A program made the position numbers and the translations under genes. Positions 32,993 to 58,876 of a stretch of DNA of 64,000 nucleotides are shown one piece after another. This DNA is from Candidatus Marinacidobacterales bacterium (GTDB lineage: Bacteria; Acidobacteriota; Vicinamibacteria; Marinacidobacterales; DATDRI01): positions 4,256,001 to 4,320,000 of the forward strand of contig CBDCNP010000002.1 in NCBI GenBank assembly GCA_965219415.1. Direction: 5' to 3'. The notes under the pieces are model-generated. The model did not search any database, was not told the origin of the DNA, and worked only from the letters and a program-made list of their open reading frames with translations. Each line of letters begins with the position of its first letter. The stretch's first letter is position 1.

Positions 32993-33169
32993 GGGTCCGG
33001 CAAGGCTTGAGAGCATCTCGTTCATCATCGCTCCCCGGCTCGTTCTTGATGGCCTTGGACCGGATCATCAGGCGGACCCGTGAGCTCAGTAAGCAGGCCC
33101 TGCCGCGCACGGACGCCGCGACCGAGGTCGGATCCCAGCCTCGGTTGGCGCCCAGCACGACACGCGGGG

Positions 33170-34072
33170 TCAGCGAGTTGCCGTCCCTGTCGGGAACATG
33201 CTCGCGATGTTGTCCATGGGTTGGAGGACGGCCGGCCCAACATCTTCAATGTTCGCGTCCACCAGCGGCTTCAGTGTGAAGGGGGCAGGACGGTTGTCTG
33301 GCTCCGGTTCGATCGATATAACCGCGTGGTAGCCGATCAGCGAGACCGATGGCGTGATGAACTCCTGCCCTGGGAATGGCGGCGTGCCATCCGGGCCTCT
33401 CGCCGGTCCACCCGCGTCCGAGTCGTCACCCGTCACCTGAGTGAATCGGCCCGTCGACACCGGGCCTTCGGGGCCGACCACCCAGCCTTCGTAAACCCAG
33501 CCCGCAGGCAACTCCGGCAGCACCAGCGACGCGCGATGACCGGCAGGGTTAAGCCACCAGATGCCCGACGCATAATCACCCGCCACAGCGGCCGTCGAAG
33601 GTGTCTCCAGAATGAAGCTCCCGGACGCGGAAGTGAAGTCGCTCCCCAACGCTGCACCATCCGCCACAGAAAGCGCAGCGCTGTTTCCAGCGAAGTCACC
33701 GGCGAGATACTTCGTCCCCGACGGCGCAGGGTCAGAATCCGGCGAAGGCTCAATGCTTAGGATGAACTTCGTCGCAGACGACAGCGCCGCCTCATCGACG
33801 GGAAAGTTGAGTTGACTCAAGCTGCCATCGTCACGGACCCTGAAAGTGCCCGTCGAGACGGGATTGCCGTCCACCAGGATCCAGCCCTCGTAGACGAAAT
33901 CAGAACCTAGACGCTCGAGACCGTTGAACGACAACCCGAGACCCATCGAGCTGGATCCGGTGGGGGTGTTCTGGCTGGGCCCCGTGGGACTGTCGTTGTC
34001 GTCGCCACACGCGGTGACAAAAGCAACCGTCATGCCAAGCAGCACCATCGCTACCGTCATGAATCGTTTCAT
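33170..34072 (-). CDS. Lipoprotein with duplicated RskA-C-like domains
   Basis: Lipobox VTAC; two YEGW..PVSTG(T/R)F..SIEP.PD..PAP repeats. Confidence 0.75.
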   Translation of the reverse strand: MKRFMTVAMVLLGMTVAFVTACGDDNDSPTGPSQNTPTGSSSMGLGLSFNGLERLGSDFVYEGWILVDGNPVSTGTFRVRDDGSLSQLNFPVDEAALSSATKFILSIEPSPDSDPAPSGTKYLAGDFAGNSAALSVADGAALGSDFTSASGSFILETPSTAAVAGDYASGIWWLNPAGHRASLVLPELPAGWVYEGWVVGPEGPVSTGRFTQVTGDDSDAGGPARGPDGTPPFPGQEFITPSVSLIGYHAVISIEPEPDNRPAPFTLKPLVDANIEDVGPAVLQPMDNIASMFPTGTATR

Positions 34073-34103
34073 GATCTATCCTCCTTCGGTTGTGGGGATC
34101 GCT

Positions 34104-34223
34104 GGTATTGTCAAGTTGAGGCATTCAGGGCTGACCCGACCCCAAGATGTTGGCAACGCGGTGCGCTCGAACCCTATTATCTAGAGGCCCGCCCCGAGCT
34201 TGAAACCTCAACTTGACTGTACC
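34104..34223 (+). mobile_element. 120-bp MITE with IS6-like TIRs (family H), intact
   Basis: GGTATTGTCAAGTTGAGG...CCTCAACTTGACTGTACC. Confidence 0.85.
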
Positions 34224-34519
34224 GTCTCTGGGGCTATGCCAGCGAACTACACCGCCACATTATAGCTCATCCCTGCTCGAACGCACTTGAGGATTTTCTC
34301 TTGGCGCTTGGGGGTGAGTTTGGTTTTCCGTCCAGCCATGTGTTTTGGGGAATTTTACCAGGGTTGCCTGAAGATATGATGAAATTGACGCAATAGGTCG
34401 CGGTTGGCCTTCTCCCCACGCGCGAAACAGGCGTAGAATGTGGCTTATTGACGCCTGCGACCTGCCCAGCTTCCTTATTACTTATTCCAGCCCGAACGCA
34501 CTCCAGGATGGTTTTTGGG

Positions 34520-36121
34520 GTTGCTGTCAAGTTGAGGTCTCGAGCTCGGAGCGGGCCGCTAGATAATGGGGCTCGAGCGTACCGCGTTGCCAACATCTTG
34601 GGGTCCGGTCGGTCCCGAATGCCTCAACTAATAAGAAACTCAGGGTGTAGCGTTGGCAAGAGGTGTGAGAGTGACGTCAAAACCGAGCTCCCTTAGGCGT
34701 CGTGTCATTCGTATTGTGAGCTGTTCCTTGTCGCGTTGATGGAAGTAATCGGCACCCAGTTCCCGGTATGGAATCTCATTGTGGAGCATGTAGTAGACGG
34801 CGGTGATGATGGAGGCGGCGACGGCGACGACAGCTTTCTTGGGGCCCCGACGAGACTTGAGCCGGAAGAACTGGGCACGCAGATAGCTGTCGCGCTTGCG
34901 GCTTGCCGCCCAAGCGGCTTGGACAAGAGCGGTCTTGAGCCATGGAGCCCCTTTGCGGGTTTTCTGAGAAAAGCGTTTACCGGCACTCTCATGAAGCCGT
35001 GGGCATAGACCGGCCCAAGAGCGAAGGTGTCCGGCCGTTGGGAATGCCGAGACATCGGGTCCGATCTCGGCGACGAGAATGGCCGCCGTGGCTTCACTGA
35101 TGCCCGGGATCGTCACCAGAAGCTCGACGGCCGATCGAAAAGGGCGCAGGCTCTCTGTGATACGGGATTCGAGCGCGCTCACTGAGGCTTCAAGCTGCTC
35201 GATATGATGGAGATGAAAACCCAACAGGAAACGATGATGGTCGGTAACGTAGCCCTCGAGCGCTGCGCTCAATTCCTGTTCAGTGGCTTTGAGTCGGCTC
35301 GAGCCCAGCTCACTCAGCTTGTGAGGGTCGCTTTCTCCCGCAATGATCGCTCGGAGAATCGCCCGCCCGCTTACTCCCAAAATCGTGCTAATCACGCTCG
35401 TCAATTTGATGTTCGCGTCTTCCAACGTCTTTTGAATTCGCTGGGTCTCCCGAGCGATTTCTCGAACGAACTGCTTTCGCGTTCGGGTCAGCTCTCGCAG
35501 TTCCTGGATCGGCGTTGGCGGAACGAAGCTAGCTCGAATGAGACCATGGGCAAGCAAATCCGCTATCCACAAGGCATCACTGATATCGCTCTTACGACCC
35601 GGCATGTTCTTGACGTGGGCCGGTTGTGCCAACACCAACTCAAAATGACCTTCGAGCACATGCCACACCGGCTTCCAATACACTCCGGTCGCTTCCATCG
35701 CTACAATCGTGCAACCGCACTGCCCCAGCCAATCCAACATTTCCAGCAATTCGCTCGTGGCCGTGCCGAACACACGCGTCTCGCGCACCACCTTCCGCTT
35801 CGACGCTACCCGCACGCAAGCCGTAATCGATTTCTGGTGGACGTCCAATCCGGCGCATCGCTTATGAACCACTCTCATCGCAGCCTCCTTCACGTCGCAC
35901 CGGCGTGGAGCCCACGAACTTGTAATCTAATAGACGCGCTCAACTATCCCAGCTGGAATAGAAAACGCAATTTGGGGTACGCGCAGGACTCCCAGCCAAA
36001 CTTGACAACGGGCTCAGTCGCACCAACGTTAAGCCGAGCTCTGAGCCGGTGCCACCTTCACAGACTACCGCGTTTCATTTATTCGGGGTGACCGCCAGGC
36101 CGTGGAAAACTTGACAGTACC
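34520..36121 (-). mobile_element. H MITE interrupted within its TIR by a complete IS110 (about 34630-36107)
   Basis: MITE body at 34520-34629; TIR remainder TGACAGTACC at 36112-36121; AACT at both junctions. Confidence 0.85.
34640..35893 (-). CDS. IS110-family recombinase
   Basis: GLDVH, MEATG, KSDISDA (DEDD); IPGIS..AGL.P...ESAG (Tnp20 Ser). Confidence 0.95.
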   Translation of the reverse strand: MKEAAMRVVHKRCAGLDVHQKSITACVRVASKRKVVRETRVFGTATSELLEMLDWLGQCGCTIVAMEATGVYWKPVWHVLEGHFELVLAQPAHVKNMPGRKSDISDALWIADLLAHGLIRASFVPPTPIQELRELTRTRKQFVREIARETQRIQKTLEDANIKLTSVISTILGVSGRAILRAIIAGESDPHKLSELGSSRLKATEQELSAALEGYVTDHHRFLLGFHLHHIEQLEASVSALESRITESLRPFRSAVELLVTIPGISEATAAILVAEIGPDVSAFPTAGHLRSWAGLCPRLHESAGKRFSQKTRKGAPWLKTALVQAAWAASRKRDSYLRAQFFRLKSRRGPKKAVVAVAASIITAVYYMLHNEIPYRELGADYFHQRDKEQLTIRMTRRLRELGFDVTLTPLANATP

Positions 36122-36298
36122 GTAGTGCACTATCACACAGAACGGAACCACCAAGGTCTCGGCAACGAGCTCATCACACCTCTGCCGGCAAGCGCGAATG
36201 ACGCTGGCCCCATCGTGTCGCGAGAGCGACTCGGGGGCATTCTCAACTACTACTACCGTGCCGCGTAGATTGTCGCCGGCGACGGTAGCCCCTCGGTG
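36122..36298 (+). pseudogene. 3' fragment of the 356-aa transposase element
   Basis: Near-identical to the reverse complement of 1-176. Confidence 0.9.
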
Positions 36299-36336
36299 GG
36301 CTCGACCGACGTAGCGTGGAAACAGCTTCAGGAACA

Positions 36337-36776
36337 ACTCCGGTCGCTTCCATCGCTACAATCGTGCAACCGCACTGCCCCAGCCAATCCAACATTTCCA
36401 GCAATTCGCTCGTGGCCGTGTCGAACACACGCGTCTCGCGCACCACCTTCCGCTTCGACGCTACCCGCACGCAAGCCGTAATCGATTTTTGGTGGACGTC
36501 CAATCCGGCGCATCGCTTATGAACCACTCTCATCGCAGCCTCCTTCACGTCGCACCGGCGTGGAGCCCACGAACTTGTAATCTAATAGACGCGCTCAACT
36601 ATCCCAGCTGGAATAGAAAACGCAATTTGGGGTACGCGCAGGACTCCCAGCCAAACTTGACAACGGGCTCAGTCGCACCAACGTTAAGCCGACCTCTGAG
36701 CCGGTGCCACCTTCACAGACTACCGCGTTTCATTTATTCGGGGTGACCGCCAGGCCGTGGAAAACTTGACAGTACC
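36337..36776 (-). mobile_element. IS110 copy 2: non-coding end plus first ~70 codons
   Basis: Near-identical to 35683-36121, with the same target flank. Confidence 0.9.
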
Positions 36777-36779
36777 GTC

Positions 36780-36945
36780 GGTGCTTGCGCTGTTTACTGT
36801 TGGTAATATGTACGCATCCCTTTGCAAAAGGGGCGCTTACGCTCCATTTAGCGTGCAGCGAAGGTCGTAAGCGCTATTTTGGCTGTAATTTAATGCACCG
36901 TAAAGTCTTAGCGTCATCTCACCAACACTTAATGGCGGAAGCACC
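36780..36945 (+). mobile_element. G1 MITE
   Basis: 166 bp with TIRs, matches 13502-13667. Confidence 0.9.
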
Positions 36946-37039
36946 GGGTCGCTTGCGCCTGACCGATGCGAAACGTCCCGTCGCACCAGTCTCAAGTCCG
37001 TTTGTGTTTTTGGACACGAGGGGATGACGAGGTGGTCGG

Positions 37040-37906
37040 ATGATCAAGGTGGTGAGCTGGAACATCGGCAAGCGCAAGAAGCCGTGGCGCCAACTGGTGC
37101 AGATGGCTCGCGAAGGTGACGCGGATTTGGCGCTCTTGCAGGAAGCGGGAAGCCCACCCGGAGACTTGGTGCACTGGATCGAATACATGGACAAGGTGTT
37201 CTGGAACCGGCAACTATACGACCGCTGGCCGTTGGTCGTGAAGCTGTCCGATCGAATCACCGTCGAGCCGTACCGCCAAGTCCCGCCGACCAACGAACTC
37301 GGTGAGGATACGATTGGTGTCAGTGGCATCGGCACCATCGCCGCCAGTAGGGTGATCCCGTGCGACAACGAGGAAGAGGCTTTTGTGGCAGTGTCGATGT
37401 ACGCACGCTGGTTGCATCCTCATCCGTCTACCAGGAGCAGTTGGGGTGTCGGTTACTCGGATGCCTCAGCCCATCGGATCATTTCGGACCTGTCCGCGTT
37501 CATAGGTCATTCCGACCCTACGAAGCACAGGATCCTGGCTGCGGGTGATCTGAACATGTTCTACGGGGCAGTCGGTTCCAGGTTGTCGCTGCCGGAACGT
37601 GACCGCACGGTGTGGGATCGGATGCAGGCGCTCGGGCTGGAGTTCCTGGGTCCGCAGGCGCCGCACGGTCGGCGCGCACGAACTGCGCCAGACGACGTAC
37701 CGCCGACCACGAGGAACGTGCCGACCTACTACCGCCCGGGAACCGAACCGGAAACCGCGGTGAATCAATTGGACTACGCGTTCGCGTCGCGCGGGTTCCA
37801 CGAGAAGGTCTCAGTGCTGGCGATGAACGAGATTGAGGAGTGGGGCCCGAGCGATCACTGCCGTCTGATGATCGAGGTAAATGTGAAAGGCCACAACAAG
37901 AGTTGA
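37040..37906 (+). CDS. Endonuclease/exonuclease/phosphatase (EEP) family protein
   Basis: VSWNI, LLQE, AGDLN, LDYAF, SDH; a D-end lies about 20 bp upstream. Confidence 0.9.
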   Translation: MIKVVSWNIGKRKKPWRQLVQMAREGDADLALLQEAGSPPGDLVHWIEYMDKVFWNRQLYDRWPLVVKLSDRITVEPYRQVPPTNELGEDTIGVSGIGTIAASRVIPCDNEEEAFVAVSMYARWLHPHPSTRSSWGVGYSDASAHRIISDLSAFIGHSDPTKHRILAAGDLNMFYGAVGSRLSLPERDRTVWDRMQALGLEFLGPQAPHGRRARTAPDDVPPTTRNVPTYYRPGTEPETAVNQLDYAFASRGFHEKVSVLAMNEIEEWGPSDHCRLMIEVNVKGHNKS

Positions 37907-37964
37907 CTTCCCTCGACTGGACCGCCGTACTAGCCACGAGGGATCACGCGCCGCGACGGACGGC

Positions 37965-38820
37965 CATGATCCGAAAAAAAGATCGCGTATTGATGAGCAA
38001 ACAGCGTCGTGTCCGAAAATACAAACGGAGCCCGAAAGCTCGAATCCTAGAGGCTTTCTCGAAATTCGCGGAGACCAACCGGGTTCCCAAGCATGCGCGG
38101 GGATGAACTCCGCATACCTCGTAGGGCAAGCCGGCGCGAGAGAAGGAAAGAAGAAAGGGATGAAGATCGAGCCAACAGAGCCGAACGAGTTCATCAATGA
38201 CCTGGTGCTGCTAAGTTTCATTGTGTTGGGGATTTTCGCGTTCTACTACGTGAGCGCTTGCGTGTTTTGATGTTATGTTTCCAATGAAGTGAAGCGTCCT
38301 CCCGCAAAGCTGATCTTTTCGAGAACCCGGTTCTCCTCGAGCACGTAGACGATAGTGGACTGTTGGTCACGCTGGACTCGACCAGCAATGGCGACGACCA
38401 ACTATGTCAAGGACTGGATCGGCGTGCGAAGACCGAGGATTCTAGCTTCCATCGGCCAACCAAACCTAGATATCTCTATTCCGAAACGTCACGGCGCGAC
38501 GGCGTCGTGTCCAAGAATACGAACGGAGCCGGAAAGCTCGAATCCTAGAGGCGTTCTCGAAATTTGTGGAAACCCGCCGACGCGGCACTGGCTCTGCTAA
38601 GGACTGCCGACGTATTCTTCTGCCTCGGTCAACGCGTTCCCGAGCCCTTGATGGTTGCGCTCTCTGTAATAATGATGAATGAACTCAGCGACGGCCCGGC
38701 GCGCCGGTCTTGAGTTCGTTTGTATTCTTGGACACGACGGAGTTTTTGGGTTTGCCAAAAAGATGTTACGCCATTCTTATTTCCACGGGAATCGGGACAG
38801 ATCCTATTTTGCGGATCACA
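37965..38820. mobile_element. Cluster of D- and F-type ends and rve fragments
   Basis: D-ends at 38005, 38503 and 38739; F-like ends at about 37967 and 38820; 38385-38490 homologous to 24465-24570. Confidence 0.7.
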
Positions 38821-38885
38821 ACCAGAGGTGCCACCCTAGTATGGCTGACCGACAGAACTAATTTTGGCAGAACCAGGAGAACAAG

Positions 38886-39320
38886 ATGGCAAGACTAACG
38901 ATAAGCTCCTATAGAAAACCCGCGGTGATCATAAGTCGAAGCGCCGTTGCACGAGACCACCTCGTCTATATTGCCGTCGCTAACAAGCCCATGAGGTACA
39001 GATATGGGCGCTCCAGAATCGTCTATATCGGTACGACTAGAGCAGGCGCCTCACGGATCGCGCAGAGTGCCGCTGGTAAGGCCAATCATATGCTGGCTCT
39101 TCACGGGGTAACTCACCTCCAGTTTTATGTTGTTTCGTGTCCGCGACGGCAACGTGTTCAAACGTGGAAAAAACTGGAGCGTGGGCTACTTCTTTGCTTT
39201 CGTGAGCAATTCGGCGAAGTGCCCGAGTGCAACACGCAGGGAAGGCGAATGAAATGGCGAGATGAGCTCAAGTACTTTACAGAACGCCGCATGCGATCCG
39301 TCATCTTCAAGTACTCTTGA
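38886..39320 (+). CDS. GIY-YIG-like hypothetical nuclease
   Basis: LVY..IVYIGT..R..LE..PECN pattern; RBS AGGAG. Confidence 0.6.
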   Translation: MARLTISSYRKPAVIISRSAVARDHLVYIAVANKPMRYRYGRSRIVYIGTTRAGASRIAQSAAGKANHMLALHGVTHLQFYVVSCPRRQRVQTWKKLERGLLLCFREQFGEVPECNTQGRRMKWRDELKYFTERRMRSVIFKYS

Positions 39321-39336
39321 GATTGGATCGTCTGAT

Positions 39337-39495
39337 ATGAGTGAAGAAATCGCCCTTGTCGGTATCGATTGCGCGACCCAGCCATCCAATGTCGGACTTG
39401 CGCTCGGCGTTTGGCGTCTCGGCTCTCTAGAAATTCGCGAACTGGGAAACAGAGAACATTCTCCCCAAGAAACAATAACCCACTGGTTGAATCAG
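39337..39495 (+). pseudogene. DUF429-like RNase-H-fold nuclease, 5' fragment
   Basis: LVGIDCATQPSNVGLA. Confidence 0.55.
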
Positions 39496-39844
39496 CGTAC
39501 CCGTACTGGTCGCGCTCGGGGTCGCGCCAGACGGGCAGAAACGTCTGTTGTCATTGCGTCTGGCGGTGAGCGAAGCCTCGACGCATTGGGGCTCCGTGCT
39601 GGAGGGACTCCAGGCTCGAGGACTCCGGGCTTTATTAGGGAAGAGAAGAAGAAGGAAGAATCAAACTAGTTGCTCTCGGACCGCCCAAGAGTAGCCGCCA
39701 CCGACGAGAACAGACATGGGATGCCCCCCGGGTCTAGTGTCGGCGTGAGCGCTGGCGCTCTACTTCCTCCAGATCTTTGCGCTGGTCTTCTGCACTGCCC
39801 AGAAACGTTGCCCGAACCGCCTTCATGTTCCACTTTTCCTTAGG

Positions 39845-40295
39845 CTCCAGTCTCATTCCGTCGAGGAGCCCACCCTAAGCCCGGCGCGCAAGGCTGCGCT
39901 TCGACGTAGGTGGGCGGATCTTATCCGTCGGGTGTACGAAGTCGACCCTCTGCTTTGTGAGCGCTGCGGTGGCCAGCTCCGAGTGATCGGCTTCATCACC
40001 GAGCCTCGTGTCATAGGAAAGATTCTTGAGCATCTCGAAAAGCGAGACCGACATTCACGAGCTCCACCTCCTGCTCAGCCGGTCTCGGTATCTTGAGCCC
40101 CTCCCCCGGCGCTCCATCGACTCTCTTCGTGTGTCTAGACGAGCAGAGCCTGCCCGCAAGCCCTCGAGCACACCACCAGCTTTCCCTCTTCAACTCGAGA
40201 TGCTATTCTTCCCCTTCCAAAGGAGGGGAGAACGCACCTACGGGGGTGAAAAGCACCGGTATCGGAGGAGCACCCGCGGGTCAAAATCCCTATCC
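39845..40295 (+). mobile_element. IS91/ISCR-like transposase 3' fragment with oriIS end (not in the ORF track)
   Basis: 39911-40096 translates as WADLIRRVYEVDPLLCERCGGQLRVIGFITEPRVIGKILEHL..RAPP*; end AAAATCCCTATCC. Confidence 0.8.
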
Positions 40296-40306
40296 TTTGG
40301 TAGACC

Positions 40307-41521
40307 ATGGATCATCGAAGTGGACTCAAACTCGCGGACATCCGCAACCTCGCCGACCCCGCGGAGCTCTACGGGAGGTTGCGCCAGGATCCGGTTTCCT
40401 GGTCAAAGGAGTTCGACGGATGGTTTCTATCCCGATACGTCGACGTCAAGAACGCCTTGCTCGAGGCTTCTTTGAGCAACGAGAGAATCTCTCACCTAAA
40501 GGACGAGCTTCCCGGAATGGAAGACCTGCTGAAGGACTACGCCCGGGTCCTTCGTGGCGCCATGTTCATGGCCGATCCTCCGATCCACACCCGGTTAAGA
40601 AAATTAACTCGGGGAGGGTTTACACACGCTTCCGTCGAGCACTGGCGGTCGGTCATTCAAGGTGTTGTCGATTCTTGTCTGGACAAGGTGCAAAGCGCGG
40701 GGCGGATGGATATCGTGGCCGACTTCGCCGATCCCATCCCATCGATCTTCATGGCCGAGCTCTTCGACATCTCCGCCGGAGATCGAGATGAATTCTTCCA
40801 ATGGTCGATCGACCTAGCCGCTTTCTTCGGCTCGCCTTTAGGCGACGTCAAAGAAAAGGCGCGTCTAGCCAATGAAGGTACTCGCAAACTCGAAGAATAC
40901 TTCCTTGAGCTCATCGACCGGCGCCATCGGAAGCCAGGGGAAGACCTCGTTAGCTTCTTCATTCAAAAGCAAGAGGAGGGAACTTTGAGCGAGGCCGAGG
41001 TGAGTGCTCAGTGTGTAGCTCTGCTGGCGGCGGGAACTATTACCACTGCCGACCAACTCAGCAACAGCATCGATGCCCTTCTCCGAAACCCGGATCAACT
41101 TAAACGATTGCAGCAGGTCCCGGGTCTCATCGTGGGAGCGGTCCAAGAGACACTGCGCTACGAGCCCGCCTCTCCGTTTATCTACAAGCTGGCTACCGAC
41201 GACTTCACCCTGGCCGGCCAAGAAATCCACAAAGGCCAGCGAGTTTTCCTGTGCTTCGGTCCAGCCAACCGGGATCCGGAGATGTTTCCCGAACCCGATC
41301 GCCTGGACATCGAGCGGTCGAACAGCCGGCAGCATCTCGCCTTCGGATCGGGCCCCCACTGGTGCCTCGGCGCAGACCTGGCCAGCGTTGAGATAGAAAT
41401 TGCGCTGGGGACATTGTTGAGGCGCCTGCCCCAACTGCGATTCGACGAGACTCGACCCGCGACACGCCGCTGGGAAAGCTTGACGTTCCGCGGCTTCTCA
41501 GAGCTATCCGTTGTTTTCTGA
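40307..41521 (+). CDS. Cytochrome P450
   Basis: DPPIHTRLR, ETLR, ANRDP, FGSGPHWCLG. Confidence 0.95.
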   Translation: MDHRSGLKLADIRNLADPAELYGRLRQDPVSWSKEFDGWFLSRYVDVKNALLEASLSNERISHLKDELPGMEDLLKDYARVLRGAMFMADPPIHTRLRKLTRGGFTHASVEHWRSVIQGVVDSCLDKVQSAGRMDIVADFADPIPSIFMAELFDISAGDRDEFFQWSIDLAAFFGSPLGDVKEKARLANEGTRKLEEYFLELIDRRHRKPGEDLVSFFIQKQEEGTLSEAEVSAQCVALLAAGTITTADQLSNSIDALLRNPDQLKRLQQVPGLIVGAVQETLRYEPASPFIYKLATDDFTLAGQEIHKGQRVFLCFGPANRDPEMFPEPDRLDIERSNSRQHLAFGSGPHWCLGADLASVEIEIALGTLLRRLPQLRFDETRPATRRWESLTFRGFSELSVVF

Positions 41522-41541
41522 ATATAAGGAGGAGGTGCGCC

Positions 41542-42339
41542 ATGGCGAAGACGGTCACTCCTGATGGCGTCCAGATCGACTACGTGAGCAGAGGACAGGG
41601 TAAGCCCATCTTCTTCGTTCACGGGTGGTTTTGCAGCCAGCGCGTCTGGGACTGTCAGTTCCACGCTCTGCAAGACCGATACCGCTCGGTCGCTCTCGAC
41701 CTCCGCGGCATGGGCCAGTCGGAGAAAGCGGACTGCAAGTACACGTTCGAGGAGTTCGCCTCGGACGTTCGCCACGTCATTAAGGAGCTTGGGCTCAAGG
41801 AGGTGACGCTGGTGGGTTGGTCGATGGGCGTCAGCGTCTCGCTTGCGTATATGGAGAACTACCAGGACGACGGGGACGTGGCCCGGGTCGTGCTCATCAA
41901 CGGCCCGATCAAACTGATCAGCTCGCCGGGTTGGGACTTCGGTATCGAGGAAAAAGAGTGCATGGGCTATATCAATGGATTGGCCAACGAGTCCATTAAC
42001 GGGCGCAGAAGTTTTGCCGCGGCGAATCTCTACAAGCCGACGGAGGCCGAGATCGATTTCCTCTTCAACTTATCGCTGCAGACGCCCCTCGACATCGGAC
42101 TCAAGGCGGCTTACAACCAGATGGAGCTGGATCAGCGCTCGGTCTTGAAGTCCTTGAAGGTTCCATGCCTCGCCATGCAAAGCGACCACGACTTCTACCC
42201 GGTGGGGCTGGGGCATTACATCTCCGAGACTGTCCCTAAAGGACACGTGAAGATCTTCGAGGACAGTGGGCATGCCCTTCCGTTTCAAGACACCGCTCGG
42301 TTCAACGAGGCTCTCATCGAGTTCATCGAGTCCACTTAG
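41542..42339 (+). CDS. Alpha/beta hydrolase (non-haem haloperoxidase-like)
   Basis: VHGW, DLRGMG.S, GWSMG, SGHA. Confidence 0.9.
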   Translation: MAKTVTPDGVQIDYVSRGQGKPIFFVHGWFCSQRVWDCQFHALQDRYRSVALDLRGMGQSEKADCKYTFEEFASDVRHVIKELGLKEVTLVGWSMGVSVSLAYMENYQDDGDVARVVLINGPIKLISSPGWDFGIEEKECMGYINGLANESINGRRSFAAANLYKPTEAEIDFLFNLSLQTPLDIGLKAAYNQMELDQRSVLKSLKVPCLAMQSDHDFYPVGLGHYISETVPKGHVKIFEDSGHALPFQDTARFNEALIEFIEST

Positions 42340-42372
42340 TCGTACGAAAGCTTCGCAGGAAGGAGCAAGGAG

Positions 42373-42690
42373 ATGATCAGAATCTCGGTCCTCTATCCTC
42401 ACGAGTCGGGTGCGCGATTCGACCATCAGTACTACTCGACGACCCACGTCCAACTGATCAAGGAGAAGCTCGGGCCCGCCGGTTTGGTGCGCGTGGAGAT
42501 CGACCGCGGGGTTGCGGGAGAATCGGAAGGAGCACCGGCACCGTATACCGCCGTCGGACACCTGGTGTTCGAGTCGCTCGAGGCCTTCGGTTCGGCCATG
42601 GCCGCTCACGGGGAGGCGCTGGCCGCCGATATGCCGAACTACACGGACCTCAAACCGTCGGTTCAGATTAGCGAGATCCTCCACAGCTAG
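42373..42690 (+). CDS. EthD-family protein
   Basis: ISVLYP..FD..YY...H..D.PNYTD..P.VQISE. Confidence 0.85.
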   Translation: MIRISVLYPHESGARFDHQYYSTTHVQLIKEKLGPAGLVRVEIDRGVAGESEGAPAPYTAVGHLVFESLEAFGSAMAAHGEALAADMPNYTDLKPSVQISEILHS

Positions 42691-42702
42691 AGCGACTCGG
42701 AG

Positions 42703-43162
42703 TCATCTCCAACTCAGGGTGTCGTAGCGTTCGCCGGCTTTCATCACCAAGTGGATCTTGTGCCAGGCCCAGCGCTTTTCGAGCGGGTTGGCTTCGAGAG
42801 AGATGATGTCGGCCAACTTCCCAGGCTCCAAGGTACCCAGGTCGTCCCCTATGCCGATGTTCTGGGCGCCGACCGCGGTGCCAGCACGGATGGCATCCAT
42901 CGGCGTGAAACCGCCCTCGATCAAGAACTCGATGGCGTTTCCGATGCCGCCGATGTAGAGCGGATCCATCCCCAGGCTTACCGGGATACCAGCTTTGAAG
43001 GCGGCCAAGACCTGAGTCTGTTGTGTCCGGATGGAAGGGGAAAAATCGCGTCCCCGGCGATTCTCGTCGAAGTCATCGTAGGGACGATCTTCGGTCTCGA
43101 CTTCGGGGTGGGCCTTCCGATGCTCGAAGTATTGTTTCTTCTCGAAGTCGATCCATTCTCCT
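42703..43162 (-). pseudogene. Amidohydrolase 3' fragment (paralogue of 52835-54262)
   Basis: GTLEPGKLADII; cut exactly at the TIR at 43163. Confidence 0.9.
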
Positions 43163-44485
43163 CGTATTGTGCCAAAACCCGATCGGCCGACTTTATCAAT
43201 ATTAAGCCGCGCCCGCGGGGCTTTGAACCGAACGCGGTGATTCGGGGCAGATCGAACTTCGATGCGGGACGTCCGTGCTCAGAACCCAGTGGAAACGATA
43301 TCCCGGTCCGCTTACGCTGCCTCTCGATAGTAATACCGGAGCGTTCCGCCGAGCCGCTCCCGACATTCGATGCGACCGTCGGACCGGCAGGATTCCCGCG
43401 ATGGCGTGATGAGTTCGTTATCAAGACCTTGGTGATTCCTCTCCAGATGATAATGGGCGACGAAAGCGCGAATACTCGCGCGGAGGTGATTCTCTCCCAG
43501 AGGTATCATGCGGCTAAGGCACTCACTCTTGATGGATCTAACAAAACGTTCGGCGTAGGCGTTCAGATCCGGGCTTCTCGCCGGCAGCTTCACCGTCTCC
43601 ACATCGACGCCACGAAGTGTCGCGCGGAATGATGCTGAGAACAACGGGTCGCGGTCATGGATGAGAAAGCGAGTGTCTCGAAGAAAGCCATCAATCGCGT
43701 CCGTCAGGTTTCGCGCTATTTGCGTCATCCAGTCGTCGTAGGGCTGATTAGTGATGCCTGCGATCTCGACGCGGCGCGTCTTGAGGTCGATAACGAAGAG
43801 CACGAAGTAGCGAATCAGCCCGCTGCTGGTTAGCACCTCAACCGTGAAGAAATCGGTCGCCGCGATGGCTCCCCAATGAGCTTTCAAAAACGTACCCCAT
43901 GGGATTCGCTTGCGGCGCTCCGGTGCAGACTCGATTCCGTGCTCCGCGAGGATGCGCTTCACCGTGTTTCGGCCGACGTCGTGGCCCAGGTTAACGAAGA
44001 GCGCCGCAAATCCTTGTATAGCCCCAGGTTGAATTTTGGGTTGCCATCCTGACGACGAGCTCGCGTATCGTTTCTGCCACGCGAGGCGGTCCCGGACCGC
44101 GGCGCTTGCTCCCGTCGTACTTCTTCGCGATCAGCCGTGTGTACCAGCGCAACAGTGTGTCGGGCGTGACCAGGCCTGCAACCTCCTTCAGCCCATCCCT
44201 GCCCAACGCTCTCGCTTTCGCCGCAAGACGCCGCCGCTGCTCATCGGTGAAACGCAGTCGGCGTCCACCCAATTGTTCCCGGAGAACGCGATTCTCTTCC
44301 TTCAGGTATTCGATCGCATCCTGTTGGAACCGGTTGACCCAGCCGGCGAGGGTCACGACGAGCAACTGCCAAAGGTGAGGCTGCATGGACCGGATTCTAC
44401 CGGCTCTCGGTGCTGGCATCGCCGCGGCCCACAAGGGCCTACTAATACTCGATATCCGGAGTCGGCCGAGTTTTGGCACAGTACG
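43163..44485 (-). mobile_element. Complete rve element with A-type TIRs; transposase (about 43312-44386) frameshifted near 43992
   Basis: CGTATTGTGCCAAAAC / GTTTTGGCACAGTACG; two ORF halves homologous to 31-1101. Confidence 0.9.
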
Positions 44486-44501
44486 CGGGCCGATCATCAC
44501 C

Positions 44502-44660
44502 TGTGCCTTCTATTTATTCATCCGGGCGCCCCGAACTTGATTAGTCTCCGGTCTGTCGGCACCATACCTGCTTGATTTCGTCGTTTGTTCGTGCTCTCAT
44601 CTCCGCCTTCAAGGCTCATCGCGAGCTGGCTCTCGACGAGCCTTGAAGGCAGAGATGAGA
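44502..44660 (+). mobile_element. B-end with start of an rve gene
   Basis: Matches 55989-56125 and the reverse complement of 32840-32971. Confidence 0.8.
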
Positions 44661-44681
44661 GAGCGAACAAACTACAAAATC

Positions 44682-45467
44682 ATGATGAATCGAGATGCTT
44701 GGGACCCGGAACAATATGGACGCTTTCGACGCGAGCGAAAACAACCCTTCTTCGATCTATTGGCTCTTGTTCGTCCCAAATCCAGAATGCGCATCGTGGA
44801 CCTGGGATGCGGTCCGGGGGAGTTGACGGACGAGCTACACCGACGGCTGAGCGCTCACGAAGCGCTTGGGATCGATATCTCGGAGGCCATGCTTCGAGAA
44901 GCCGATGGTCGGGAAGGCGAGGGGCTAAGTTTTCGACAACAGGACATAGCCGATTTCGCCGATTCGTCCGAAGGGGCTGCCTATGACTTGGTCTTCTCGA
45001 ACGCCGCCCTGCAATGGGTTCCCGATCACCGAGAACTGATTTCGAGGCTCACCGAAGCGCTGGCCGAGGACGGGCAGCTTGCGATACAGGTGCCCGCAAA
45101 CTTCGACCACGTCTCTCACGAGACCGCCAGTGAGATTGCGGGGGGAATCGCCCTTCCGGGAAGCACTCGGGGGCTTCACTCATCCGCTATTCGTTCTTCA
45201 GCCGGAGGCCTATGCGTCTCTTCTCGACGAACTCCGCTACCGAGAGCAGCACGTCAGGCTTCAGGTCTACTCCCACCGGCTCGGATCGAGAGAAGAGGTG
45301 GTGGAGTGCTCAAGGGCTCGCTACTTACACTCTACGAAAGCCGGCTGACCGGTGAGCTATTCGAGCGTTTTATCGCGAGCTACCGTGATCGGTTGCTGCC
45401 CCGGTTGCGCGATGGGCGGCCGTTCTTCTTTACTTTCAAGCGTATCTTGATCTGGGCGGCACGCTGA
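44682..45467 (+). pseudogene. Trans-aconitate-methyltransferase-like SAM methyltransferase, frameshifted
   Basis: WDPEQY..R..PF.DLL, DLGCGPG, SNAALQWVPDH; middle part lies in another frame (about 45145-45310). Confidence 0.8.
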
Positions 45468-45493
45468 ACAGAACCCGTCGCGTCCGAAAATTC

Positions 45494-45816
45494 GGTGCTT
45501 CCGCCATCAAGTGTTGCTACGCGGCTGCGGGCAGTGGTACAGGTGCGGAAGAGACCGGGTTGCGCGCCCTACGGTGCTTCCGCCATCAAGTGTTGCTACG
45601 CCGTGTTTGAATGCTAATGTCAGCTGGCCTGCCTGTGTCGGCGAACGCCATTAATGAGGATGTCGGCGTGCACACGAAGGTGTCCCTGAATGTCAGGCAC
45701 CGTGTGGTCAGCCCAGCCCGCATCGCCGAAAGAACTGCGTCTCCCGAAATCAGGCTCAAACTCTAGCACACGAGCGGGTTACGCGGCAGCCACCAACACT
45801 TGATTGCGGAAGCACC
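45494..45816. mobile_element. IS1-like end stub (45494-45572) + 244-bp MITE G2 (45573-45816)
   Basis: GGTGCTTCCGC TIRs; second G2 copy at 60949-61194. Confidence 0.85.
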
Positions 45817-46370
45817 ACGCAACGATTGACCGTGTGTTCAAAGAATACGAGCAGTATCTGCGGGACTGGCCGTCCGTCGTTAATCGGCACAGGCGGAGCT
45901 TGAAGCTGACATTCGTGCTGGACAACGCGGGCACAGCACCAGCCGATAGCGTGCATGTACGGTTCTGGACAGAAGCCGATGGCGTATGGCTGGAGGAACT
46001 GCCCGACGTGCCGCAACTGCCCGCGATGCCCAAGAGGCGCGGCCCGTTCGACCTGGGCTTTGACTTTCGGGCGCCGCTGTACAACGCAACCCATCTGCCC
46101 CAGCTCGACCGCGACATGGAAGGCCCCACCATTACGGACGACGAACCGAAGCAGGTCAAGTTCTGGATGAAACGCGTGATGCATCATTTACCGGTGAAAC
46201 TGCCAGCGGTGCATTTTCAGTTCCGCGCGGATGAGAGTGTCAAGTCATTCGGCATTAACTATCAGTTGGTCGCGGCGAACATCCGGAAACCTAAGACGAA
46301 CGTTCTCCACGTGAAGCTGTCAATGGCCGCGCCCATGGCGCCGCCGCTGCCGGGCAGCGAAGCGGACTAG
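45817..46370 (+). pseudogene. Hypothetical protein, C-terminal fragment
   Basis: L.N.GTAPA..V.V beta-sandwich-like motif; 5' end cut by the MITE. Confidence 0.5.
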
Positions 46371-46419
46371 TAGGTAGGGTGTGCGCCGCAGCGGTCATTC
46401 CAACTGACGCATGACAAAA

Positions 46420-47132
46420 CAACTCCAGCGCTTCTTTCCATTCGGCCTCTTTCGATTGCACGAATATGGCGATCGCGCTCCTGCATGGCGGTGTTCGAAT
46501 TCTGACTGAGCGTAGCGTTTCGTTGCGGCGGAATCACCACGCGCGTCCTTCGTCCTGGGCTGTGCGCTTCGATGGCTTCGTAGACCGCTTCCTTGTCGTA
46601 TGCACTGTCCGCCACCACCGACGCTAGAGGTGCTTGAATCTGTGTTAGCAAAGGGGGGACTCGCGTTGCGTCGCGAGCTCGTGACGCCGTCAGTTCCGAC
46701 GCAACAATGTTGCCGGTCTTGCGATCAACGGCGATGTGCAACTTGCGCCAGGCGCGCTGCTTTGGCGGTTTGCGGGCGGTTCCAACATGAATCCTCAAGC
46801 CCGTGCTATCGAGCATTAGGTGGATTGATTGCTTGCTTGCGGCTTTCCCAATCCGCCGCTTCTTGCAGAGCAGCCTCGACCGCCGACACCACGTCGAGTA
46901 GTCCGGGAGCTCGATACACAGCCGGAGAAGCGAGGCGATCGAGTGCAAGAAACCCTCGGTTTGGCGGTAGGCAAGCTTGTACACCATCCGGACAACCAAG
47001 CCCGTTTCAATCGCCATCTCTGAATAGACCCGTTGACCGCCAGGCTTACCGCTCTTGTCGGCCTTCCAGTTCGCGATTGCCTCCTCGTCAAACCAGACCT
47101 TCAAATCGCCCCGGCGGCGCAGCCCTTCGTTG
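46420..47132 (-). mobile_element. IS5-family (IS903-like) transposase remnant
   Basis: LRRRGDL.VWF, LAYRQTEG, PDYST, DSTGL, WRKLH, ADSAYD. Confidence 0.9.
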
Positions 47133-47146
47133 GGTACTGTCAAGTT

Positions 47147-47360
47147 TTTCACGGCCTGACGGCCACCCCGAATGAATGAAACGCGGTAGTCTCTGTAGGT
47201 GGCACCGGCTCAGAGGTCGGCTCAACGTTGGTGCGACTGAGCCCGTTGTCAAGTTTGGCTGGGAGTCCTGCGCGTACCCCAAATGGCGTTTTCTATTCCA
47301 GCTGGGATAGTTGAGCGCGTCTATTAGATTACAAGTTCGTGGGCTCCACGCCGGTGCGAC
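47147..47360 (+). ncRNA. Putative IS110 bridge/seek RNA locus (also at about 35894-36107 and 36549-36762)
   Basis: About 215-bp conserved non-coding end upstream of the recombinase; contains matches to the target; RNA not directly shown. Confidence 0.6.
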
Positions 47361-48614
47361 GTGAAGGAGGCTGCGATGAGAGTGGTTCATAAGCGATGCG
47401 CCGGATTGGACGTCCACCAGAAATCGATTACGGCTTGCGTGCGGGTTGCGTTGAAGCGGAAGGTGGTACGCGAGACGCGTGTGTTCGGTACAGCCACGAG
47501 CGAATTGCTGGAAATGGCGGATTGGCTGGGGCAGAGCGGTTGCACGATTGTAGCGATGAAAGCGACCGGAGTGTATTGGAAGCCGGTGTGGCATGTGCTC
47601 GAAGGTCATTTCGAGTTGGTGTTGGCACAACCGGCCCACATCAAGAACATGCCGGGTCGTAAGAGCGATATCAGTGATGCCTTCTGGATAGCGGATTTGC
47701 TTGCCCATGGTCTCATTCGTGCTAGCTTCGTTCCGCCAACACCGATCCAGGAACTGCGAGAGCTGACCCGAACGCGAAAGCAGTTCGTTCGAGAAATCGC
47801 TCGGGAGACCCAACGGATTCAAAAGACGTTGGAAGATGCGAACATCAAATTGACGAGCGTGATGAGCAGCATTTTAGGAGTAAGCGGGCGAGCGATTATC
47901 CGAGGGATCATTGCGGGAGAAAGCGACCCTCACAAGCTGAGCGAGCTTGGCTCGAGCCGACTCAAAGCCACTGAACAGGAATTGAGCGCAGCGCTCGAGG
48001 GCCACGTTACCGACCATCATCGTTTCCTGTTGGGTTTTCATCTCCATCACATCGAGCAGCTTGAAGCCTCAGTGAGCGCGCTCGAGTCCCGTATCACAGA
48101 GAGCCTGCGCCCTTTTCGACCGGCCGTCGAGCTTCTGGTGACGATCCCGGGCATCAGTGAAGCCACGGCGGCCATTCTCGTCGCCGAGATCGGACCCGAT
48201 GTGTCGGCTTTCCCAACCGCCGGACACCTTCGCTCTTGGGCCGGTCTGTGCCCACGGCTTCATGAAAGTGCCGGTAAACGCTTTTCTCAGAAAACCCGCA
48301 AAGGCGCTCCATGGCTCAAGACCGCTCTTGTCCAAGCCGCTTGGGCGGCAAGCCGCAAGCGCGACAGCTATCTGCGTGCCCAGTTCTTCCGGCTTAAGTC
48401 TCGTCGCGGCCCCAAGAAAGCTGTGGTCGCCGTCGCCGCCTCCATCATCACTGCCGTCTACTACATGCTCCACAACGAGATTCCATACCGGGAACTGGGT
48501 GCCGATTACTTCCATCAACGCGACAAAGACCAGCTCACAAAACGAATGACACGACGCCTGAGGGAGCTCGGTTTTGACGTCACTCTCACACCTCTTGCCA
48601 ACGCTACACCCTGA
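47361..48614 (+). CDS. IS110-family recombinase, E->K at the DEDD Glu
   Basis: MKATG versus MEATG in copies 1 and 2. Confidence 0.9.
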   Translation: MKEAAMRVVHKRCAGLDVHQKSITACVRVALKRKVVRETRVFGTATSELLEMADWLGQSGCTIVAMKATGVYWKPVWHVLEGHFELVLAQPAHIKNMPGRKSDISDAFWIADLLAHGLIRASFVPPTPIQELRELTRTRKQFVREIARETQRIQKTLEDANIKLTSVMSSILGVSGRAIIRGIIAGESDPHKLSELGSSRLKATEQELSAALEGHVTDHHRFLLGFHLHHIEQLEASVSALESRITESLRPFRPAVELLVTIPGISEATAAILVAEIGPDVSAFPTAGHLRSWAGLCPRLHESAGKRFSQKTRKGAPWLKTALVQAAWAASRKRDSYLRAQFFRLKSRRGPKKAVVAVAASIITAVYYMLHNEIPYRELGADYFHQRDKDQLTKRMTRRLRELGFDVTLTPLANATP

Positions 48615-48943
48615 GTTTCTTATTAGTTGAGGCATTCAGCGCCGATCCGACCCCAAGATGGTATTGGTCAACAGCCCGACGATAGACCTTCACATGGCGG
48701 CTCTTGTCGAAGTCTCGACGGTCGACTGTGAAGCCCCTCAGAATGTTGATGCAATCGTCCATGTGCTGCATCAGGCCCTGGACCCACGAGATGATGGGCC
48801 GAGAAGCTATCGAGTACACGCGGGGCAAGGAAGTTGCGGATGCGCTAGACACCTTCCTAGCCGAGTACGACAAGACCACGACATCTAGTGAGCGGTCCAA
48901 CCAAGAGATATAGTAGCGTAAAATCGCATGATGGAGACGTTGC

Positions 48944-50197
48944 GTGCTTAGCCCGCTGCACGACTGGCTGCTTAAGTGGGGGATGAGCGAGGCGGGCGCC
49001 ACGCTGCTGACACAGCTTGGAGGCGTCCTGCTCGTCCTGTTCGTCGCCCTGATCGCCAACCGTATCACCAAGAGTGTCGTGGTTCGCGGTATCGCGCGGC
49101 TCGCGCGACGGACGAACTCGAGTTGGGACGACGTCGTGATGCAGCACCGCGTGTTACAACGGGTGTCACATCTCGCGCCGGCGCTGGTGATCTACCACTT
49201 CGCGACTCCGGTGCTCACCGGATACGACCAGCTGACAGCCGTCGTGCGGCAGGGGGCGCTCATCTCCATGATCGTCATCGCGGCGCTGGCGGCCGACAGC
49301 GTTGTGAACGTGGGGATCGAAATCGTCCGGGGTTCGCGGCTCCCGCGGGAGCTACCGGTGCGGAGCATCGCCCAGGTGCTCAAGCTGGTGGTGTACGCCG
49401 TAACGGCCATCAGCGTCCTGTCGCTCGTCCTCGGCCGCTCGCCGCTGCTGCTGTTGAGCGGCCTCGGCGCGATGAGTGCGGTGACTATGCTTATCTTCAA
49501 GGACGCCATTCTTGGCTTCGTCGCCGGCATCCAGCTGTCGGCGAACCGAATGGTCTCGCGGGGCGATTGGATCGAGATGCCGAAGCACGGCGCCGACGGC
49601 GACGTGCTCGATGTGGGATTGACGACAGTGAAGGTGCAGAACTGGGACAAGACGATCACCACGATTCCCACCTACGCGCTGATTGTGGAATCGTTCAAGA
49701 ACTGGCGCGGCATGGCGGAATCGGGTGGCCGGCGCATCAAGCGAGCCCTCTACATCGACGTCGGCTCCATTCGTTTCTGTGACGAGGAGATGCTGGCGCG
49801 CTTCTCGAAAATTCAGTACATCGCCGACTATCTGAAGGCCAAACGAGAGGAAATTGCAAGCTGGAACGCGGAGCGCGGGGTCGAACCGGCGAGCTTGGCC
49901 AACGGCCGCCATTTGACGAACGTCGGCACGTTTCGCGCCTATGTTGTCGCGTACCTTCGCCACCACCCGATGGTGTACCAGGACATGACGTTCCTAGTCC
50001 GGCAGCTGGCGCCGACCGAGCACGGGCTCCCGATCGAGGTCTACGTCTTCAGCCGCGATCAGGTCTGGAGCCGCTACGAGGCGATCCAGGCGGACATCTT
50101 CGACCACCTGCTAGCGGTGGTACCGGAGTTCGACCTGCGAGTGTTCCAGAGTCCGTCGGGGCGCGACGTGGAGCGGGCGATCGGCACCTGCTTATAA
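48944..50197 (+). CDS. MscS-family mechanosensitive channel (YbdG-like)
   Basis: GDWIEMP..ADG.V..TVKVQNWDKTI..GGRRIKR..LTNVGTFRAY. Confidence 0.9.
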   Translation: MLSPLHDWLLKWGMSEAGATLLTQLGGVLLVLFVALIANRITKSVVVRGIARLARRTNSSWDDVVMQHRVLQRVSHLAPALVIYHFATPVLTGYDQLTAVVRQGALISMIVIAALAADSVVNVGIEIVRGSRLPRELPVRSIAQVLKLVVYAVTAISVLSLVLGRSPLLLLSGLGAMSAVTMLIFKDAILGFVAGIQLSANRMVSRGDWIEMPKHGADGDVLDVGLTTVKVQNWDKTITTIPTYALIVESFKNWRGMAESGGRRIKRALYIDVGSIRFCDEEMLARFSKIQYIADYLKAKREEIASWNAERGVEPASLANGRHLTNVGTFRAYVVAYLRHHPMVYQDMTFLVRQLAPTEHGLPIEVYVFSRDQVWSRYEAIQADIFDHLLAVVPEFDLRVFQSPSGRDVERAIGTCL

Positions 50198-58718: not shown

Positions 58719-58876
58719 CTAGCCCTCTGTATTTGTGCCCGCGGGAATCGCTCCCAGAACATCAAGTTTTCGCCGGATGCCGTCTCTGATTCTTAACGGA
58801 TGAAGCCTACCATGATCGGGTGAATCAGGCGGGTACTGTCAAGGTTGGCGTCGAACGGAACCACCCGACTCTGGCT

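Follow-up and report, generated by a model that had tools for sequence, protein, structure and literature searches.

An IS110-family element with a probable bridge RNA that inserts into the terminal repeats of an IS6-family element and its MITEs

The insertion sequences (IS) IS4321 and IS5075, of the IS1111 group, reportedly target the terminal repeats of Tn21-family transposons, a preference said to have been described by Partridge and Hall in 2003. For the IS110 family, guidance of the recombinase by RNA has been demonstrated experimentally (PMC11208160, PMC11187229), and these reports describe how the guides are ordered. In IS1111-type elements, where the RNA lies downstream of the gene, the match to the target's top strand precedes the match to the bottom strand, and the order is reversed in ISEc21, an IS110-type element with its RNA upstream (PMC11187229). 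Within a loop of the IS110 subgroup, the bottom-strand guide lies 5′ of the top-strand guide (PMC11208160, PMC11187229). Here, an element of the IS110 family was analyzed in a stretch of 64,000 nucleotides (nt) from Candidatus Marinacidobacterales bacterium (assembly GCA_965219415.1, contig CBDCNP010000002.1, positions 4,256,001 to 4,320,000), the whole of which is called the window below. With a probability of about 0.85, this is an IS with a bridge (seek) RNA, encoded in its non-coding left end, that guides insertion to the terminal inverted repeat (TIR) of an IS6-family element and of its MITEs (miniature inverted-repeat transposable elements). The 231-nt left end would encode this RNA, and the RNA would steer insertion to the site TGTCA-AG-TTGAG.

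Alignment of the three copies of the element in the window identified two full-length elements and one 5′ fragment. Copy B occupies positions 47145 to 48624 on the plus strand (1,480 bp), with its non-coding left end at 47145 to 47375. Copy A, also full length, runs from 36109 down to 34630 on the minus strand and shares 96.3% identity with copy B over 1,479 aligned bases (BLAST). Copy C (minus strand, 36764 to ∼36337; ∼426 bp) comprises the non-coding end and the first part of the transposase gene. All three copies are preceded by GGTACTGTCAAGTT, which is exact at 47133 to 47146 (+), 36121 to 36108 (−), and 36776 to 36763 (−). When up to two mismatches were allowed, the window held seven matches to this sequence compared with 0.19 expected, and seven were reached in none of 100 shuffles. 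Both full copies are followed by AGTTGAGGCATTC, exact at 48625 to 48637 (+) and 34629 to 34617 (−). The common left flank of the three copies and the common right flank of the two complete ones, noted in a preliminary description of this DNA, are thus exact string matches. To the left of copy B lies a repeat stub, GGTACTGTCA plus AG (47143 to 47144), at 47133 to 47144 (+); to the left of copy A, the same GGTACTGTCA plus AG forms the outer 12 bp of an interrupted MITE repeat at 36110 to 36121 (−); and copy C adjoins the stub GGTACTGTCAAG at 36765 to 36776 (−).

Both 417-amino-acid open reading frames (ORFs) matched the Pfam domains DEDD_Tnp_IS110 (PF01548; E value, 1e-26) and Transposase_20 (PF02371; E value, 1e-23). 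The one ORF scanned against NCBIfam matched NF033542 (transpos_IS110, "IS110 family RNA-guided transposase") with an E value of 2e-83 and 280 bits, for a cutoff of 140. Distant PDB matches of the transposase were to IS621 (E value, 7e-10) and ISCro4 (E value, 5e-7), and the serine of its motif HES aligned with a serine of IS621. On these domain matches, the element belongs to the IS110 family and encodes a DEDD/serine recombinase, in agreement with the family first proposed for it. The transposase of copy B most likely spans 47376 to 48614 (412 amino acids), starting at the ATG behind GGAGG. The 231 nt of the left end therefore lie upstream of the gene and 10 nt follow its stop codon, a layout kept in 24 relatives. 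Among the 25 longest inverted repeats, there was no terminal inverted repeat between the two ends of the element.

Rejoined, the flanks of the IS110 copies are the end of an intact, unoccupied 120-bp MITE with IS6-type TIRs at 34104 to 34223 (+), the ends of which are GGTATTGTCAAGTTGAGG and GGTACAGTCAAGTTGAGG. These matches are exact, as had been noted before, and AGTTGAGGCATTC is also found there, exact and uninterrupted, at 34114 to 34126. Each end of the intact MITE carries one target site, TGTCAAGTTGAG or a near copy. Copy A interrupts a second MITE copy, the inner 110 bp of which lie at 34520 to 34629 (−) and start AG-TTGAGGCATTC on the minus strand. To the right of copy B, the core AG (48625 to 48626) is joined to the inner repeat and the MITE body (TTGAGGCATTCAGCG..., 48625 to 48662 [+]); this host MITE is truncated ∼38 bp in, after 48662. 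Elsewhere in the window's genome (8.05 Mb), seven 806-bp elements bounded by GGTATTGTCAAGTTGACG and GGTATTGTCAAATTGAGC were identified, along with several families of ∼120-bp MITEs with the same ends. The 234-amino-acid protein of the 806-bp element matched DDE_Tnp_IS240 (PF13610; E value, 1e-37) and NCBIfam transpos_IS6 (NF033587; E value, 4e-63; 212 bits; cutoff, 125), and because of these two matches the earlier label of the MITE as "IS6-like" is correct. The host element is therefore ∼0.8 kb in length, with one IS6/IS240-type DDE transposase and short terminal repeats that start GG; its terminal repeat reads GGTAYTGTCAAGTTGA. No matching 8-mers indicative of an 8-bp duplication were seen when the flanks of two listed copies of the 806-bp element were compared by eye. 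At the level of sequence, these junctions show the target to be the 12-bp site TGTCA-AG-TTGAG, positions 6 to 17 of the TIR of the IS6-family element and the ∼120-bp MITEs, which in its context reads GGTACTGTCAAGTTGAGG. The window also holds an unoccupied variant of the IS6-type repeat, GGTACTGTCAAGGTTGGCGTCGAACGG, at 58832 to 58870, in which AGGT replaces AGTT and one mismatch to the left target guide (see below) results; its body resembles a host context in which other genomes carry the insertion (L085, L108).

The same target was found throughout the window's genome, where BLAST placed GG..TGTCAAGT(T) in front of 16 of 16 left ends. The outer flanks of these left ends all differ, except for two with a common flank. 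All six right ends are followed by AGTT, with five or six different continuations. A census of the 9-mer TGTCAAGTT gave 85 occurrences: 10 were the guide within IS110 left ends, 20 were occupied (19 of them with repeat-like sequence upstream), 28 were repeat-like but empty, and ∼27 were non-repeat and empty. The right-end 18-mer was present in 7 of 55 genomes of the order, namely, the window's genome, none of the seven others of its family, 6 of 19 genomes of a second family, and none of 28 of a third. From these seven genomes, 30 loci gave 30 distinct junction rows. Left flanks could be identified in 24 rows, of which 21 were exactly TGTCAAGTT, two lay directly behind the right end of another copy, and one differed by one base. 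The 30 right flanks comprised 17 TTGA, 5 TTGG, 1 TTAA, 1 TCAA, and 6 that were the left end of another copy. By our reading, they continue into about a dozen host contexts, among them the two ends of the IS6, the two ends of MITE type 1, and also MITE type 2. As far as junction sequences can tell, these counts show repeated, independent targeting rather than one insertion carried passively, and the specific targeting of the MITE TIR put forward in the preliminary description is borne out by the 16 of 16 left ends and the 21 of 24 left flanks. None of the seven other genomes of the window's family has the IS right end, but six of the second family do (G039, G041, G048, G052, G053, and G054); because it is patchy across families of one order, this distribution suggests horizontal transfer. 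Scans of metagenome contigs with a right-end 21-mer and a left-end 24-mer returned no match.

Relatives of the element came from a scan of genome contigs that gave 80 loci with 58 to 96% amino acid identity in Acidobacteriota, Planctomycetota, and proteobacterial metagenome-assembled genomes (MAGs). Guides were examined in 25 representative relatives with ∼19 different left flanks, and column scans were run on a 24-sequence alignment (A2). An exact 9-nt copy of the relative's own left junction was present at nt 94 to 110 of the left end in 23 of the 25; the remaining two carried 6 to 7 nt of theirs. In an unbiased scan of all columns, the five flank bases before AG agreed with columns 120 to 124 at 96 to 100% identity, and the three variable bases that precede the right-end TAG agreed with columns 213 to 215 at 100% identity. 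In copy B, the first of these segments is TGTCAAGTT at 47247 to 47255 (+), on the 3′ side of the target loop, which consists of 5 nt of left target, the core AG, and the element's first two bases, TT; its counterpart in copy A lies at 36007 to 35999 (−). The second is TATTAG at 47322 to 47327 (+), on the 3′ side of the donor loop, identical to the right-end terminus TATT plus the core AG. Covariation is exact in both cases, with the left flank for the former and with the element's right terminus for the latter, and on this comparative evidence the two segments are shown to be the left target guide and the left donor guide. The preliminary description had proposed TTGTCAAGTT at 47246 to 47255 as a guide and had suggested comparing the non-coding end with the flanks across homologues. 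That comparison, in which columns 120 to 124 track the left flank, upholds the guide and redefines it as the 9 nt from 47247 to 47255; the tenth base, the T at 47246, belongs to an invariant CCCGT. As for the last two guide bases (47254 to 47255; A2 columns 127 to 128), 20 of 24 relatives have there the first two bases of the element itself and not those of the target's right flank, and the guide bases covary with these element bases (TT; TC in L035). This two-base tail may provide pairing that favors the product after bottom-strand exchange and could act as a bottom-strand "handshake."

The right end of the relatives always finishes ...GTTTCnnnnTAG, followed by variable bases, and their left junction always reads nnnnnAG and then TT(C/T). 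Because AG alone is common to both junctions, the crossover core is, by this comparison, AG (CT on the other strand, as in IS621), and the core AGTT assumed in the preliminary description has to be shortened. TT as the core was ruled out by the right junctions of relatives that lack it; 20 of the 24 relatives have a right flank that does not start TT. For the present element, TT follows the AG of the IS6 repeat by coincidence, which accounts for the apparent 4-bp repeat AGTT and for the full 9-bp match before insertion. Strand exchange would take place at the AG core, and the AGTT repeat would be only apparent, with target and left end of the element both continuing TT.

RNAalifold and pair counting on the aligned relatives predicted a bridge RNA at 47199 to 47360 (+). 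In this fold, a closing stem (47201 to 47209 with 47350 to 47358) encloses a target arm (47215 to 47259) and a donor arm, the outer stem of which pairs GGAGTCC (47262 to 47268) with GGGCTCC (47341 to 47347) and has inner stems within. Counted over the alignment, 96.7% of cells were paired compared with 88.3% in shuffles, a value reached in none of 500, and slid controls gave 32 to 43%. Changes on both sides were present in 14 of 29 pairs. The G-U pairs of the fold occur on the transposase strand only, and the RNA is therefore sense. The comparison thus shows a conserved predicted RNA fold with compensatory base changes, and segments in its loops covary with target and donor in the manner that defines a bridge (seek) RNA. 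Folded as a single sequence, the left end did not do better than its shuffles (z = 0.67); the structure came from the alignment only. A target-arm stem GGCTCAG/CTGAGCC based on minimum free energy was dropped, as it is not kept in relatives, and an Rfam scan of 33000 to 50000 (E value of ≤1) gave one chance snoRNA match only.

A candidate guide for the right half of the target lies in the target arm. Between GGTCGG and TGGTGC, 8 variable nt read CTCAACGT in copy B (47221 to 47228) and CTTAACGT in copy A. The first six bases in copy B, CTCAAC at 47221 to 47226 (+), lie on the 5′ side of the target loop and are complementary to top-strand G-TTGAG; the version in copy A fits with a G-U pair. Over 57 unique pairs of segment and right flank, the longest complementary run that includes the first flank base had a mean of 2.75, compared with 2.02 ± 0.14 in shuffled pairings, and the observed value was reached in none of 5,000. 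The best matches were 8 of 8 in L009, 6 in L007, and 6 in copy B. CTCAAC is probably the right (top-strand) target guide. Position 47223 is variable, with CTCAAC in copy B and CTTAAC in copies A and C and in L001 to L004, and the same C/T variant was seen in two DNA runs. According to the preliminary description, the guide pair would instead be TTGTCAAGTT and AGTTGAG, both reading the same strand of the target. Both strings are present, and AGTTGAG (47309 to 47315 [+]) does equal the core plus the right flank, but it straddles the conserved inner stem of the donor arm and the end of the hairpin within it. Its AG (47309 to 47310) closes that hairpin, and GAGCGCG (47313 to 47319) is the 3′ strand of the inner donor-arm stem, in which columns 208 to 210 pair with columns 158 to 160 and the pair 160/208 covaries in seven sequences. 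Relatives keep GAGCGCG although their right flanks all differ, and right-flank positions covary with no column of the region. A 7-nt sub-word match of a 23-bp target, on either strand, to 230 nt is expected ∼0.5 times by chance by our estimate. AGTTGAG is therefore judged a chance match in a conserved donor-arm helix, and the guide pair first proposed is very unlikely. The concern raised with it, that both matches were to the same strand, is met by the other segment, CTCAAC, which is complementary to the top strand; the part of the proposal that made AGTTGAG the second guide falls away.

The constant flanks could also have arisen by passive spread, in which one ancient insertion into a MITE/IS6 repeat was multiplied as a composite by the IS6 transposase; the flanks would then be uninformative about the target choice of the IS110 element. 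Consistent with this, the outer 14 bp (GGTACTGTCAAGTT) are intact after insertion because the IS110 left end begins TT, two left ends have the same outer flank, and copies A and B occupy the same end of the same MITE family. The right flanks, however, enter ∼12 different host contexts by our reading, and passive spread is therefore ruled out as the explanation; the preliminary description had named such spread as an outcome that would undo its proposal. Some left flanks are also not repeat-like (ACAAC-, ATCTT-, GCCATTGC-), and relatives with other flanks carry 9-mers that match those flanks. An origin of the constant flanks in a single insertion is highly improbable on this evidence. A last alternative is that the recombinase alone reads the repeat and that the left-end 9-mer is there by coincidence or is left over from a duplication of the junction. 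It would fit with RNA not having been observed directly and with the loose match to the right flank in relatives. Against it stand exact 9-mers at one structural position in 23 of 25 relatives with ∼19 flanks, the RNA fold with its compensatory changes, including G-U pairs on the sense strand only, and the experimental demonstration of RNA guidance for the family (PMC11208160, PMC11187229). Recognition by protein alone is hardly credible under these circumstances.

Several observations weigh against a bridge RNA that selects the IS6 repeat. The right donor guide was not found in column scans of the 24-sequence alignment, where no column exceeded background in its complementarity to the left-end terminus at the variable positions, and several candidates chosen by eye were inconsistent across relatives. 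The signal for the right target guide is modest, many single relatives match at 0 to 3 nt only, and the core A is left unpaired by CTCAAC-G. Because an IS family does not provide independent sites and the choice of the segment followed inspection of the alignment, the assignment is considered probable and no firmer. Most targets are the same conserved repeat, and conservation of the right flank is therefore inseparable from a requirement of the IS110 element itself. TCAAGG is the right flank at one insertion, and repeat-like sequence is missing upstream of one occupied site. Since the outer 14 bp of the repeat survive insertion, some copies may have spread passively with their host, and two left ends in the window's genome do have a common outer flank. 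Public runs that hold at least part of the element numbered 20, from ten studies, and 16 of them hold half or more of its words; the circle junction, the detection of which had been suggested as a check, was not seen in public runs. Contigs of two RNA libraries cover 47237 to 47476 and 47310 to 47497, although transcription, RNA ends, and strand are beyond what contigs can show. Neither a σ70-type promoter nor a terminator was found where a right end and a left end meet in a natural tandem junction (L001:2650-2920).

The element also has a derivative of 136 to 145 bp without guides and transposase, in which the first 66 nt of the left end are joined to the last ∼70 nt. Copies lie in the window's genome (G000:C3:3521505-3521639, 4618568-4618702, 4602946-4603089, and 4370106-4370241), and others are among L081 to L110. 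One deletion joint is common to the five copies examined. The derivative occupies IS6-type repeats and outnumbers the full element by 19 to 5 among the 30 junction rows. The joint that skips 47213 to 48548, which is this deletion joint, had word depths of 159 and 67 in two DNA runs, compared with ∼13 to 64 for the full-length interior, and it was also present in one RNA library. As it lacks guides and transposase, the 136-bp derivative must be moved in trans; it keeps both ends, uses the same sites, and would be mobilized in this way by the full element.

Further features were noted among the relatives. Those from Vicinamibacterales MAGs (L027 to L078; e.g., L060:1240-1290, L066:1240-1290, L028, L039, and L054) form head-to-tail arrays, and in some of them the left target guide equals the terminus of another IS110's right end, as with the L060-type guide TCTGTAGTT and the L027-type right end, TCTGT-AG. 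Judged by these guides, such array relatives are IS110 elements with the ends of other IS110s as their targets. On the donor loop's 5′ side, GTACCCCAAATGG (47272 to 47285; A2 columns ∼146 to 160) resembles, in the same sense, nt 18 to 32 of the left end, CCACCCCGAATGA (47162 to 47176; columns ∼22 to 36). In some clades, both segments vary in parallel (ACACCGT in L018/L063; GCACCCG in L015/L035/L058), and a column-wise test of this parallel change was below threshold. All 24 relatives carry an invariant ATGAAAC ∼33 nt into the left end (47177 to 47183) and an invariant GTTTC ∼7 to 12 nt before the right-end core (48612 to 48616), so that GAAAC and GTTTC form a conserved inverted 5-mer pair. Next to copy B, an ORF at 46367 to 47152 (−) with DDE_Tnp_1_5 and DDE_Tnp_1 domains, presumably an IS5-type transposase, abuts the repeat stub on the left, and together with its surroundings this region is a nest of mobile elements.

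Taken together, the element is a clear example from nature of an RNA-guided recombinase whose guide directly reveals its target. For a clade distant from IS621, guide positions are defined by the 25-member covariation set, which is the information that reprogramming needs. The multicopy repeat of another mobile element would serve as a harmless landing site that is always available. It is tentatively suggested that the architecture of the bridge RNA is undescribed, with the RNA upstream, IS1111-type order (top-strand guide 5′, bottom-strand guide 3′), a three-way junction with a long-range closing stem, core AG, and a 2-nt tail that pre-matches the left end. The same tentative reading includes a nested network of parasites, in which members of the clade may target IS6 repeats or the right ends of other IS110s and may be outnumbered by 136-bp derivatives mobilized in trans.

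As described (Durrant et al. 2024, PMC11208160; Hiraizumi et al. 2024, PMC11208158), IS621 resembles the element in its DEDD and serine recombinase, in a long left end that encodes the RNA ahead of the gene while the right end is short, in the two arms for target and donor, and in a 9-nt bottom-strand guide that includes the 2-nt core alongside a short top-strand guide. The protein studied here is only distantly related to that of IS621 (E value, 7e-10). On the transposase strand, the core is AG here, in contrast to CT as given for IS621; two further differences are a closing stem, by which the two arms form a three-way junction, and the final 2 nt of the left target guide, which in 20 of 24 relatives agree with the left end of the element itself and not with the target. 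The bottom-strand guides lie on the 3′ side in both arms although the RNA is upstream of the transposase, unlike the arrangement given for IS621 and ISEc21. Set against the contrast between ISEc21 and ISEc11, ISKpn4, and ISPa11 in Siddiquee et al. 2024 (PMC11187229), the element combines the upstream RNA position with the IS1111-type guide order.

With the IS110 subgroup (IS621- and ISEc21-like), the element thus shares the long left end, the upstream RNA, and the short right end; it departs from the order given for that subgroup, as the left target and donor guides are 3′ in their loops and the candidate top-strand guide is 5′. From the IS1111 subgroup it differs in the upstream location of its non-coding region. 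An IS1111-type sub-terminal inverted repeat (7 to 17 bp) was not found, nor was any such repeat of ≥8 nt found between the two ends. The guide order therefore fits neither subgroup as described in the portions consulted, and it is not claimed as new, as published architectures may already show it. If the reversed order is true, where the RNA lies in the element and how the guides are ordered in the loops would be separable traits, which bears on the divergence of the IS110 and IS1111 groups.

The 136-bp derivative can be likened to MITEPpu9, a MITE-like derivative of ISPpu9 (PMC12288879), in that both are non-autonomous, have IS110-family ends, and are presumably moved in trans. By comparison with MITEPpu9, the derivative found here is a plain internal deletion with one common joint, lacks a small-RNA gene, and resides in IS6 repeats.

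A word search of the open-access literature found no report of an IS110 element targeting an IS6 repeat. The nearest parallel in target choice is IS4321/IS5075, likewise an IS110-superfamily element with the TIR of another transposon as its specific target. Those elements have a downstream non-coding region, long sub-terminal inverted repeats, and a Tn3-family host, whereas the non-coding region is upstream here and the host is an IS6-family element with its MITEs. Thus, the element appears to be a bridge-RNA IS110 with a well-defined natural target in the IS6 repeat and an RNA layout that is possibly undescribed, and with the end of another transposon as its target it extends the IS4321/Tn21 precedent to an element with an upstream RNA and to an IS6 host.

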